A stretch of DNA of 64,000 nucleotides, from positions 757 through 64,756 of the forward strand of contig CAZIFD010000003.1 in NCBI GenBank assembly GCA_964538685.1. The letters are read 5' to 3'. A model generated the notes under the pieces. That model was not told the DNA's origin and did not search any database. It worked only from the letters and a program-made list of their open reading frames with translations. Position 1 is the stretch's first letter; every line of letters begins with the position of its first letter. Of the stretch, positions 37,196-50,204 are shown one piece after another. This DNA comes from an uncultured Bdellovibrionales bacterium (GTDB lineage Bacteria; Patescibacteriota; Minisyncoccia; Moranbacterales; UBA2206). The translations under genes were made by a program, and so were the position numbers.

Positions 37196-37247
37196 TTTTG
37201 TGGTATTTGTTATTTGTCAGACGAGACAAGCGGAGGAGACACAAGAA

Positions 37248-37315
37248 GTCCTTGTAGCTCAGTGGACCTGCCCGGCATTGCCTTCGGCATCAGCCGATGG
37301 CAGGCGGGTAGAGCG
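37248..37315 (+). other. Duplicated 5' fragment of tRNA-Arg (positions 1-27) with a 43-nt structured hairpin inserted in the D-loop
   Basis: GTCCTTGTAGCTCAGTGG, then ACCTGCCCGGCATTGCCTTCGGCATCAGCCGATGGCAGGCGGG, then TAGAGCG. The intact tRNA follows 30 nt downstream. Confidence 0.5.
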
Positions 37316-37344
37316 CCTCTTGGGATTACAAAAATTAAACAAAA

Positions 37345-37417
37345 GTCCTTGTAGCTCAGTGGATAGAGCGTTTGGTTGCGGTCCAAAAGGTCGCAGGTTC
37401 AATTCCTGCCAAGGACA
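37345..37417 (+). tRNA. tRNA-Arg (anticodon GCG by manual fold; needs tRNAscan confirmation)
   Basis: Cloverleaf: acceptor GTCCTTG/CAAGGAC, D-stem GCTC/GAGC, anticodon stem TTTGG/CCAAA, loop TTGCGGT, T-loop TTCAATT. Confidence 0.75.
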
Positions 37418-37418
37418 C

Positions 37419-38249
37419 CTAGTATTTCTTTTCAAATTCAGCAAATTCTTCTAACATTTCCTGAGTAATTTTTCCGATTTTTCCATTCCCTACTTTCCAA
37501 GAATCAACCTTAACAATCGGAACTACAAATTTATTGGTAGCTGTCAAAAAGATTTCATCAGCTTTTTTGAGCTCATCAATTGAAACTTCCCGCTCTTCAA
37601 CCGGGTATTTTTTCTTAGCCAATTTCAAAACCAAATTCCGAGTAATGCCATGAAGAATTCCGTCTTTGGGAGTGATAATTTTTCCATCTTTGACCATAAA
37701 AATATTACTAGTGGAAGCTTCCAGAACCAATCCGTTTTTCACAAAAAGAATTTCCAAAGCTTTTTGCTTATTTTTTTTATCTTGCAATTTAATCGCTTCC
37801 ACATAGTTTGTGATTTTGCATTTTGGAAGATTTCGGGAAAACTCATGAGTTATGAGTTTAGCGCCCTTGGTATAAATTTCTTCGGGAAGATTGTAAAATC
37901 TTTCAATTAAAATATAGCAAGTCTGTTTTCCGACAGAAAAACCGTTCTCACTCACTCCTCCTGTCAGAACTGTTCTTATGGTTGATTTTTTGTGCCCATG
38001 AAGCTTGAGCAAATTTTTTAGTATTCCCTCATATTCCGAAAATGAAAATGGCACTTTGAGTTCAAGTTCTTTGGCTGAATTTCTAAATCGTTCAAAATGT
38101 TCCTTGCTTAAAAAAGGTTTCTCGCCGTTCGCACACATCACATCAAACACTCCGTAACCACGAAGGATTCCAATGTCATAAGGATCAATTTTTATCTTGT
38201 CCACAGTTGTTATTTTTCCGTTCCAATAGCAATGGTTTTTTTTGGCCAT
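37419..38249 (-). CDS. Class IV aminotransferase (branched-chain / D-amino-acid aminotransferase family)
   Basis: 276 aa with fold-type IV PLP motifs (EASTSNIFMV ... GITR). Confidence 0.75.
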   Translation of the reverse strand: MAKKNHCYWNGKITTVDKIKIDPYDIGILRGYGVFDVMCANGEKPFLSKEHFERFRNSAKELELKVPFSFSEYEGILKNLLKLHGHKKSTIRTVLTGGVSENGFSVGKQTCYILIERFYNLPEEIYTKGAKLITHEFSRNLPKCKITNYVEAIKLQDKKNKQKALEILFVKNGLVLEASTSNIFMVKDGKIITPKDGILHGITRNLVLKLAKKKYPVEEREVSIDELKKADEIFLTATNKFVVPIVKVDSWKVGNGKIGKITQEMLEEFAEFEKKY

Positions 38250-46474: not shown

Positions 46475-46496
46475 CTAAATAATACGAAAAAAGTAC

Positions 46497-46565
46497 GCCC
46501 TTATAGCTCAGTTGGCCCGCCCGGCATCGTCTTCGGCTCAGCCGATGGCGGACGGGTAGAGCAGT
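46497..46565 (+). other. Duplicated 5' fragment of tRNA-Lys (leader plus positions 1-27) with a 41-nt hairpin inserted in the D-loop
   Basis: GCCCTTATAGCTCAGTTGG, then CCCGCCCGGCATCGTCTTCGGCTCAGCCGATGGCGGACGGG, then TAGAGCAG. Same insert family and position as 37266..37308. Confidence 0.5.
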
Positions 46566-46574
46566 AAAAAATAA

Positions 46575-46814
46575 ATGTTTTTTTATACATATGTACTGAA
46601 AAGTGAAAAAGATGATAATTTATATATAGGATTCACCAGTAATTTAAAAAATAGACTGGAAAAACATAACTCGGGAAAAGTAGTCGCCACAAAAAACAGA
46701 AAGCCACTAGAATTAGTTTATTATGAAGCCTGCAAAAATAAGGAAAAAGCCATAGCAAGAGAAAAATATTTCAAGAAAGGATTTGGGAGAAATTTCCTAA
46801 AAAATAGAATATAA
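46575..46814 (+). CDS. GIY-YIG family nuclease (79 aa)
   Basis: FYTYVL...LYIGFTSNLKNRLEKHN...E...KYFKKG matches the GIY-YIG core. Nested between the tRNA-Lys fragment and the intact tRNA-Lys. Confidence 0.75.
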   Translation: MFFYTYVLKSEKDDNLYIGFTSNLKNRLEKHNSGKVVATKNRKPLELVYYEACKNKEKAIAREKYFKKGFGRNFLKNRI

Positions 46815-46821
46815 AAAGTAC

Positions 46822-46894
46822 GCCCTTATAGCTCAGTTGGTAGAGCAGTTGCCTCTTAAGCAAACGGTCCCAGGTTCAAGTCCTGGTGAGGGCA
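46822..46894 (+). tRNA. tRNA-Lys (anticodon CUU)
   Basis: Manual fold with anticodon loop CTCTTAA. Confidence 0.85.
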
Positions 46895-46906
46895 CGGAGA
46901 AAAACA

Positions 46907-46975
46907 TGGCGGGTATAGTTCAATGGTAGAACACTGGTTTGTGGTACCAGCTACCTGGGTCCAATCCATCCGACC
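46907..46975 (+). pseudogene. tRNA-His-like fragment (intact acceptor-5', D-arm and GUG anticodon arm; no matching T-arm or 3' acceptor)
   Basis: GGCGGGTATAGTTCAATGGTAGAAC-A-CTGGT-TTGTGGT-ACCAG, then non-complementary sequence. Confidence 0.3.
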
Positions 46976-50082: not shown

Positions 50083-50156
50083 GGCGATTATCGTCTAACG
50101 GTTAAGACATCGGTTTGTGGTACCGAGAATCAGGGTCCGACTCCCTGTAATCGCCC
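50083..50156 (+). tRNA. tRNA-His (anticodon GUG) with G-1
   Basis: G-1:C73 pair, anticodon loop TTGTGGT and T-arm CAGGG-TCCGACT-CCCTG. Confidence 0.85.
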
Positions 50157-50204
50157 CGATATTGGCTTAATAAATAGATTTAACTCCCTTTATTTTACAA
50201 AGCC

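Follow-up and report, generated by a model that had tools for sequence, protein, structure and literature searches.

Two of the tRNA genes on a 64,000-nucleotide stretch of contig CAZIFD010000003.1 (assembly GCA_964538685.1) are preceded by a displaced copy of their own 5' end, and in both cases this copy is split by a short GC-rich hairpin. The question raised by these loci, which belong to tRNA-Arg(GCG) and tRNA-Lys(CTT), is what places the beginning of a tRNA gene a second time beside the intact gene, and a palindrome within that second beginning. The whole stretch, hereafter the window, was analysed together with related loci from other genomes. From this comparison, the features of the window are probably displaced tRNA 5' ends made by a small selfish cassette, in which a minimal nuclease gene is joined to the palindromic hairpin, here called H. 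An earlier note, made from the letters of the window, had drawn attention to the Arg locus and had read it either as the scar of a mobile element or as the source of a processed, structured RNA; the first of these readings fits the evidence collected here.

Both loci stand out clearly from the rest of the window. Consecutive 11-mers of the 5' part are repeated nearby, on the same strand, for two of the seven tRNA genes (Arg and Lys), in a count that set aside the D-arm sequence common to tRNAs. The consensus pattern of the insert has 0 expected occurrences in shuffled sequence, and the covariance model of the insert (R1) recognises exactly two sites in the 64 kb (Table 1). The danger that such loci are chimeras, assembled wrongly at a repeated tRNA sequence, was raised at the outset and is practically negligible: assemblies of SRR5581382 and SRR30684747 give the Arg locus without a single base of difference, the Lys locus is also present in the Logan assembly of SRR5581382, and the same architecture is found across many unrelated assemblies and lineages. 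The one fact that could be read in favour of an artefact is a short-read contig (L287) that ends within the repeated tRNA-Arg segment, at about window position 37361. From this break, the duplication seems rather to interrupt assemblies, so that such loci may be under-represented in metagenome-assembled genomes (MAGs).

At both loci the copy starts in the leader of the tRNA, is interrupted by H, and resumes for a few nucleotides on the other side (Table 1). The earlier note had described an 18-nt duplication of the start of tRNA-Arg with a 43-nt insert; the duplication at a spacing of 97 nt was borne out, but it measures 21 nt (2 leader nt and tRNA nt 1-19), and the insert, present as described, is 42 nt long. 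The D-stem strand TAGAGCG, followed by unrelated sequence, was found as reported, with a 7-nt match to nt 20-26 and then a spacer of 27 nt. Likewise, the tRNA-Lys locus does show the same architecture with a covarying insert, the two inserts being homologous, of the same subtype and distinguished by compensatory changes. The Arg copy of H is a clean insertion without target duplication and has a GC content of 71%, in a window of 36.7% GC; taken together, the two inserts range from 71 to 76% GC. The taxonomic position of the window was judged from its TsaD protein, whose best named homologs belong to Patescibacteria/Parcubacteria, with ~60% identity. The place of the Arg spacer is occupied at the Lys locus by an open reading frame (ORF), which starts 18 nt past the hairpin and 9 nt past TAGAGCAGT and whose stop codon lies 7 nt ahead of the tRNA.

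Table 1. Features of the tRNA-Arg and tRNA-Lys loci in the window (positions count from the first nucleotide of the window).
Feature	Position	Strand	Evidence or remark
Displaced tRNA-Arg(GCG) 5' region, 2 leader nt + tRNA nt 1-19	37246-37266	+	AAGTCCTTGTAGCTCAGTGGA; 21-nt exact direct repeat of 37343-37363, spacing 97 nt
42-nt GC-rich hairpin module H, Arg copy	37267-37308	+	Covariance model R1, 63.2 bits, E=1.4e-14
TAGAGCG, displaced tRNA copy resumes after H (nt 20-26)	37309-37315	+	7-nt exact contiguous match to intact tRNA-Arg
27-nt unrelated spacer; place of the GIY-YIG ORF at other loci	37316-37342	+	ORF-less
Intact tRNA-Arg(GCG)	37345-37419	+	ARAGORN; Rfam RF00005, 73.1 bits
Displaced tRNA-Lys(CTT) 5' region, 9 leader nt + tRNA nt 1-19	46488-46515	+	28-nt exact copy of 46813-46840
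41-nt hairpin module H, subtype shared with the Arg copy	46516-46556	+	Covariance model R1, 62.5 bits, E=2.2e-14
TAGAGCAGT, displaced tRNA copy resumes (nt 20-28)	46557-46565	+	9-nt exact contiguous match
79-aa minimal GIY-YIG nuclease ORF (UPF0213/Slx1-like)	46575-46814	+	Pfam PF01541, E=9e-19
Intact tRNA-Lys(CTT)	46822-46895	+	ARAGORN; Rfam, 69.4 bits

The ORF of the Lys locus made it possible to look for the same arrangement elsewhere. The DNA around nine of its homologs was fetched, giving ten distinct GIY-YIG loci with the window included (single loci are labelled L240, L247 and so on). A hairpin related to H, recognised by model R1, lies within ~50 nt of the ORF at all ten, a strongly positive answer to the earlier suggestion that the insert be checked for linkage to GIY-YIG ORFs; the insert consensus, whose recurrence the note had also wished to see checked, recurs as well, with copies found in other Patescibacteria and in Desulfobacterales. 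H is located upstream of the ORF at nine of the ten loci, and between ORF and tRNA at L271. Relative to the ORF, H points forward at some loci (the window, L247) and is reversed at others (L265, L266, L279). For nine of the ten ORFs, a tRNA gene on the same strand begins 0-46 nt past the stop codon (0-20 nt in eight of these nine), the neighbours being Lys-CTT (one), Lys-TTT (four), Thr (one), Asn (two) and Phe (one). The full succession of displaced copy, H, resumed copy, ORF and intact gene is found at the window Lys (CTT) locus and at L240 Lys (TTT), L265 Thr, L279 Lys (TTT), L282 Phe and L283 Asn, while L247 and L266 look like decayed versions of it. Overall, the arrangement recurs at five types of tRNA and, as described below, at one protein gene, in different lineages of the candidate phyla radiation (CPR).

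The geometry of these loci shows what is fixed and what is free. Given as the exact match to the left of H, the tRNA nucleotide after which H stands and the exact match to its right, the values are 21 nt, 19 and 7 nt for the window tRNA-Arg (GCG); 28 nt, 19 and 9 nt for the window tRNA-Lys (CTT); 22 nt, 20 and 5 nt for the tRNA-Lys (TTT) of L240; 12 nt, 6 and 8 nt for the tRNA-Thr (TGT) of L265; 8 nt, 7 and 7 nt for the tRNA-Lys (TTT) of L279; 33 nt, 18 and 5 nt for the tRNA-Phe (GAA) of L282, where the repeat extends to ~65 nt with two mismatches; and 13 nt, 12 and 6 nt for the tRNA-Asn (GTT) of L283. At these seven tRNA loci H is a clean insertion, with neither duplication nor loss of target bases, into an exact copy of leader and 5' part; at L271 it abuts tRNA nt +1. 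The earlier placement of the insert exactly in the D-loop therefore holds for the two window loci, where H follows nt 19, but not as a rule, as elsewhere it is found after nt 6, 7, 12 or 18, against nt +1, or in a fragment of a protein gene. What remains constant is the distance of H to the right end of the displaced copy, that is, to the ORF junction, which is always 5-11 nt although the copy itself is 15-65 nt long. From this it follows that the D-loop is not special, and random placement of H at such a distance would have a probability of about 5e-4 (the authors' estimate from the values above). The ORF takes up nearly all of the DNA between the two copies: H is separated from the start codon by 2-32 nt, and the stop codon from the tRNA by 0-46 nt. 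The ORF is thus bracketed by a displaced duplicate and an intact gene, as in a partial duplication of the host gene, the duplicates being exact at seven tRNA loci (the Arg locus without the ORF) and diverged at the protein gene.

A trace of the same linkage is present in the protein databases. Over-long homologs in these databases carry N-terminal "extensions" which, in 13 of 17 cases, are the translated hairpin or the translated tRNA D-arm with the hairpin (for example MAGG.., ..SDGGRVEQ.. (DGGRVE..), ARPQRLSK.. and ..AVSSAARPQRLSK..); these point to further independent loci at which H and the ORF are linked. The starts concerned, called too far upstream, are those of P0004, P0005, P0006, P0012, P0021, P0050, P0052, P0066, P0079, P0081, P0082, P0113 and P0114; some of these mis-starts are an ATG in the 3' arm of the hairpin (ATGGCGG...), and others lie further upstream.

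The protein-gene target, L255, deserves a separate description. Its annotated 109-aa "GIY-YIG" protein is made of three pieces: the first 34 nt of a gene for a NAD-dependent epimerase (MKTVATGGAGF), a hairpin of 47 nt, and 11 more nt of the epimerase (..IGSH), which provide the start codon (ATG) of the nuclease, 79 aa long. Past the ORF comes the epimerase gene in intact form (MKVLVTGGAGFIGSH...), and the two epimerase 5' ends encode one motif and differ mainly at synonymous sites. An epimerase ortholog of 84% identity (L288) has neither hairpin, ORF nor duplicate. The 5' end of this cassette-free gene is identical to the displaced fragment of L255 at 37 of 45 nt and to the current 5' end at 32 of 45, and it shares with the displaced fragment the Ser codon TCG, which is AGT in the current L255 gene. 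This weakly suggests, the comparison covering 45 nt only, that the displaced piece may be the original 5' end of the gene and that the working 5' end came with the cassette.

Judged by its sequence, the product of the ORF is a GIY-YIG domain and little else. The ORF of the Lys locus has 325 homologs at E<1e-8, nearly all of 78-80 aa, from CPR sources whose names include Moran-, Zambryski-, Kerfeld- and Magasanikbacteria. In 11 sequences there is no variation at the GIY and YIG motifs (Y4/Y6, Y17/G19) or at R27, H31 and E63, and the proteins retain 65-79% identity even between lineages in which the flanking DNA cannot be aligned; the protein is thus conserved and looks active. A profile of the 11 members matches the UPF0213 structures 1zg2 (BH0048, E=3.7e-8) and 1ywl (EF2693, 2e-5) and SLX1 (2e-3), with I-TevI reaching an E of 0.087 only. 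The single domain of 78-80 aa agrees with the minimal GIY-YIG type of UPF0213 and prokaryotic Slx1-like proteins, which a survey of 2006 describes as the minimal form of the domain (PMC1564403), and the C-terminal DNA-binding region of I-TevI and the Seg proteins is absent, leaving the catalytic domain alone.

The fold of H was examined on 17 distinct members of the hairpin family. The nested multi-stem fold proposed in the earlier note (CCYGCC/GGCRGG, then CGNC/GNCG, then an apical helix of 3-4 bp) is the conserved one: 93.4% of cells are paired, four pairs are changed on both sides, and its covariation score is matched by 0 of 500 shuffles. RNAalifold predicts the same three helices independently. 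The compensation is plain in L247, where CGGC/GCCG has become CGCC/GGCG and UGCC/GGCA has become UGGC/GCCA. A rod-like fold, also considered, is less conserved (85.1% of cells paired, two pairs changed on both sides, covariation score reached by 24 of 500 shuffles) and was rejected, as was the minimum free energy fold of the single Arg sequence, which differs from the nested fold and is not conserved. No other RNA family was recognised besides tRNA when both loci were searched against Rfam, at gathering and at permissive thresholds, and no intron or ribozyme matched at E values up to 10 and up to 5. Small self-cleaving ribozymes in Rfam, those similar to hepatitis delta virus (HDV) and others, were absent from permissive scans of both loci and from scans of 18 related loci at gathering score, and the idea of a resemblance to HDV-like ribozymes was dropped for lack of support in these scans. 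Nor is H a tRNA intron, as the earlier note had rightly held for the anticodon loop: tRNA nt 1-26/28 alone flank it, unrelated sequence follows, and both the second tRNA half and an intron core are missing, so that H agrees with neither a group I nor a bulge-helix-bulge intron.

H is also found without the nuclease gene. A scan of one genome per species listed 118 matches, among which at least ~30 are true members of the hairpin family, the remainder being chance matches in GC-rich coding DNA. In MAGs of Desulfobacterales/Desulfobacteraceae there are at least ~30 near-identical copies of the hairpin core (loci among L002-L117), several per MAG, with arms and junction bases in common (cccGCCCGGCAUU..CAGCCGAUGGCggacggg). 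Mostly intergenic, they usually tip longer GC-rich palindromes of CCCGCC(Y)GCC motifs, and some of them are nested in each other (for example L049, 2651-2685; L054; L099); a further copy is that of L008 (155-189). A different case is given by the Patescibacteria MAG H52-bin111_1 (L039, 4697-4738), where an H of 42 nt stands in frame, as 14 codons, near the 3' end of a gene similar to that of threonyl-tRNA synthetase (ThrRS). The insertion (...HVRER[ARPASPSASADGGR]GKEKLRLV...) is clean and falls in a loop near the C-terminus. The number of hairpin copies is thus several per MAG in Desulfobacterales and two in the 64-kb CPR window, and the target-site duplication typical of miniature inverted-repeat transposable elements (MITEs) is lacking, the flanks being contiguous in the target with zero duplicated bases. 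A scan of metagenomes with GCCGATGGCNNNCGGGTAGAGC was set aside, the pattern being too loose: all 120 listed matches are coding, in GC-rich genes, and none is the module. From its two orientations, its in-frame insertion in a gene and its nested repeats, H is best read as a palindromic hairpin that would act as an element at the level of DNA.

The cassette proposed here would be made of a UPF0213/Slx1-like GIY-YIG gene of ~240 bp and a GC-rich palindromic H of ~40-46 bp, and it would settle in the leader of a target or in its 5' part, the target being in most cases a tRNA gene. Duplicates of the target 5' region would then flank the ORF, the downstream copy completing an intact gene and the upstream one, non-functional, being split by H 5-11 nt short of its end. 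With its end so close before the tRNA, the ORF probably owes its transcription to the tRNA promoter. The Lys locus would represent a complete cassette, and the Arg locus, which lies in the same genome and carries the same subtype of H, an ORF-less derivative that has either decayed or been mobilised in trans. The cassette appears to be selfish, mobile and horizontally moving; the DNA on which the nuclease acts would be H, the target or the vicinity of either, and spread may take the form of break-induced or recombinational copying, with alleles that lack the cassette as recipients.

Several observations weigh against this proposal. An ORF is missing from the Arg locus, and no remnant of one could be detected in the 27-nt spacer, whose alignment to the GIY-YIG cassettes scores at the shuffle mean. 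In the Desulfobacterales, tblastn found no GIY-YIG gene within ~4 kb of the hairpin copies, and the hairpin of L039 has neither a tRNA gene nor a GIY-YIG gene nearer than 8 kb; the presence of H without GIY-YIG in these two settings means that the two parts of the cassette can occur apart. The protein was the route to all CPR loci, so that the linkage is demonstrated in the direction "ORF implies H" only. In viral contigs neither the hairpin nor a relative of the GIY-YIG protein was found. The protein, at 78-80 aa, has no DNA-binding domain, and at the tRNA loci the intact copy is identical to the displaced one, so that a classical site-specific homing endonuclease would still cut occupied alleles; classical homing is hard to reconcile with these two features. 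The mobility of the cassette, finally, is argued from one cassette-free ortholog (L288) and from the diversity of targets, rather than from occupied and empty alleles of one population.

A structure-specific nuclease that attacks the hairpin itself, or a hairpin looped out of a heteroduplex with a naive target, would fit the anatomy. One way in which the cassette might spread is thus a homing guided by homology, a speculation that we consider quite improbable. The displaced copy (8-65 nt to the left and 5-11 nt to the right of H) would pair with a cassette-free target, H would loop out as a branched structure at a defined base, the structure-specific Slx1-like nuclease would cut at this point, and repair would copy the cassette. 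Flanking homology, and not the protein, would then set the choice of target, which would explain the target range, the fixed right arm of 5-11 nt, the indifference to orientation and the conserved hairpin arms; the solo hairpins (Arg, ThrRS, Desulfobacterales) would be non-autonomous products of the same process.

The main rival to the selfish cassette, unlikely in our judgement, takes H for an independent miniature palindromic repeat, of the kind of the repetitive extragenic palindromic (REP) sequences, MITEs or Rickettsia palindromic elements, which landed secondarily in dispensable DNA. DNA of this sort would be offered by the tRNA stubs, safe sites for the survival of such insertions that an unrelated GIY-YIG insertion or duplication had left, and H may stabilise the cassette by interrupting a direct repeat. 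Such an origin would suit the solo copy in frame in the ThrRS gene, the nested and multi-copy hairpins of Desulfobacterales with no GIY-YIG nearby, the two orientations of H, and the Arg locus, which has H and no ORF. It agrees poorly with the presence of H within ~50 nt of all ten GIY-YIG ORFs when the 64-kb window holds no further copy, with its fixed distance of 5-11 nt from the junction whatever the length of the repeat, and with its presence in L255, where the copies are too diverged to recombine.

Two further explanations look to the RNA and to integrating elements. H could act as RNA, either as a 5' stem-loop that, in a transcript driven by the tRNA promoter, stabilises or regulates the GIY-YIG mRNA or, with the D-arm, as a stable small RNA; its place ahead of the start codon at nine loci, at a distance of 2-32 nt, the conserved fold with compensatory changes, the ability of the D-stem to lengthen the helix at the two window loci and the fact that a palindrome folds in either orientation are all compatible with such a role. 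The orientation nevertheless varies while loops and bulges are asymmetric (in L279, one strand scores 53 bits and the other 30), the position of H in the tRNA copy varies too, H lies past the ORF in L271 and occurs in coding sequence and in non-CPR repeats, no Rfam family was matched, and at the Arg locus, where the ORF is absent, there would be nothing to regulate. An RNA-level role as the primary explanation is disfavoured and rather improbable, though H may have some such role in the expression of the ORF, and the processed tRNA-derived RNA of the earlier note is unlikely on the same grounds of orientation, position, the in-frame ThrRS copy and the nested Desulfobacterales repeats. The repeats might instead be of the att type, traces of a larger element that a tyrosine or serine recombinase had brought into the tRNA genes and later removed in part, an idea recommended by the large serine recombinase genes directly downstream of the same tRNAs in L241, L267 and L283. 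This is very improbable: the repeat is made of the 5' part and the leader and not of the 3' part, as the earlier note had already recognised in denying a 3'-end att duplication; the 27-260 bp between the repeats contain no integrase; L240 has the cassette and no recombinase island; and the same layout is found at a protein gene. The selfish cassette is the reading preferred here.

Some observations on the surroundings of these loci may be added. Large serine recombinase genes are located directly downstream of cassette-bearing tRNAs in L241 (1780-3114), L267 (1784-3243) and L283 (1527-2646), L240 having the same cassette and no recombinase; these tRNAs thus appear to serve larger islands as integration sites as well. 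Genes for SpoU/TrmH-type methyltransferases adjoin the cassette in L247 (463-945) and L279 (1520-1993), a neighbourhood that may reflect only a shared synteny around tRNA-Lys; the survey of 2006 (PMC1564403) reported cases in which an Slx1-like GIY-YIG domain is fused to a TrmH-like methyltransferase (tRNA Gm18, in the D-loop). A mirror-image arrangement is present in L271 (1821-2270, and in the same region of L273), where a second GIY-YIG ORF, of 91 aa and 42% identical, lies downstream of the tRNA-Lys; after it the tRNA 3' end appears once more, as a displaced copy (16-nt exact repeat, ATCCCACCCGACTCAC) whose T-loop holds an unrelated hairpin (TCCTACGAAGCCTTGGCGAAGTAGGA). In L273, compared with L271, this second ORF has lost 45 nt at its start, a sign of decay. 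In the window, directly after the tRNA-Lys (46909-46959, +), there is a truncated sequence similar to tRNA-His(GTG) (Rfam tRNA, 30.7 bits), with good acceptor 5' strand, D arm and anticodon arm, a broken T arm and no acceptor 3' strand; it was not copied from the real tRNA-His (50084-50157) and has no adjoining hairpin or GIY-YIG ORF.

If the proposal is right, few nuclease-based mobile cassettes would be smaller than this one, with ~300 bp for a bare GIY-YIG catalytic domain and a hairpin, and it would give a biological context to the large and uncharacterised bacterial family of UPF0213/Slx1-like proteins. It would also account for tRNA-like pseudo-fragments at CPR tRNA loci, and would raise the question of how a nuclease without a DNA-binding domain finds tRNA genes. 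In annotation, the cassette explains the mis-called GIY-YIG ORFs whose N-terminal extensions begin inside the hairpin, and the conservation of the hairpin across Patescibacteria and Desulfobacterales suggests that a family of palindromic mobile DNA has so far gone unrecognised.

A literature search for tRNA 5' ends at which a UPF0213-type nuclease and a conserved hairpin travel together returned analogies only, its coverage being incomplete and a description elsewhere possible. The Seg proteins of phage T4 are site-specific endonucleases with added DNA-binding regions. Among them, SegB is a GIY-YIG homing endonuclease within a tRNA gene cluster (PMC2330249), for which segmental amplification has also been described (PMC13096335); as here, a GIY-YIG ORF lies among tRNA genes and is tied to local transfer or duplication of sequence, and the Seg proteins are not known to be accompanied by a hairpin module or a split tRNA stub. 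In fungal mitochondria, free-standing homing-endonuclease genes occur with a partial duplication of the end of the gene they invaded, as in atp6 and cob, whose C-terminal duplicates are flanked by GIY-YIG or LAGLIDADG ORFs (PMC6279837). The likeness is close, a small ORF standing beside the intact gene with a displaced, non-functional duplicate of its end on the opposite side, and it extends to L255, whose two copies also differ mostly at synonymous sites. The arrangement described here differs from the fungal one in that it concerns the 5' end, mostly of tRNA genes and in bacteria, with a bare catalytic domain of 78 aa and a conserved hairpin that always interrupts the displaced copy. The stand-alone UPF0213/Slx1-like proteins (BH0048, 1zg2; EF2693, 1ywl; PMC1564403) share the sequence family and the single-domain architecture but figure in the literature as cellular proteins whose role is unknown, and no mobile-cassette context, tRNA linkage or associated hairpin was found there.

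On the side of the hairpin, the Rickettsia palindromic elements are small palindromic mobile repeats that insert in genes. Together with the GC clusters of yeast mitochondria (PMC4478555) they offer the nearest likeness to H, as GC-rich hairpins in an AT-rich genome, which can stand in frame in a protein gene or within the sequence of an RNA gene and are multi-copy in some genomes. Unlike them, H is shorter, has arms and a junction that are near-identical across phyla, causes no target duplication and is tied in CPR to a nuclease ORF. The tRNA introns of Patescibacteria are group I introns in the anticodon loop (PMC13011429), similar in being insertions in tRNA gene sequence in the same phylum; the present inserts are unrelated to them, being 41-46 nt long without an intron core, in a copy that lacks the 3' two-thirds of the tRNA and has the intact tRNA downstream. 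Set beside these systems, the arrangement combines known kinds of element, a free-standing nuclease cassette and a palindromic mobile repeat, and is not categorically new.

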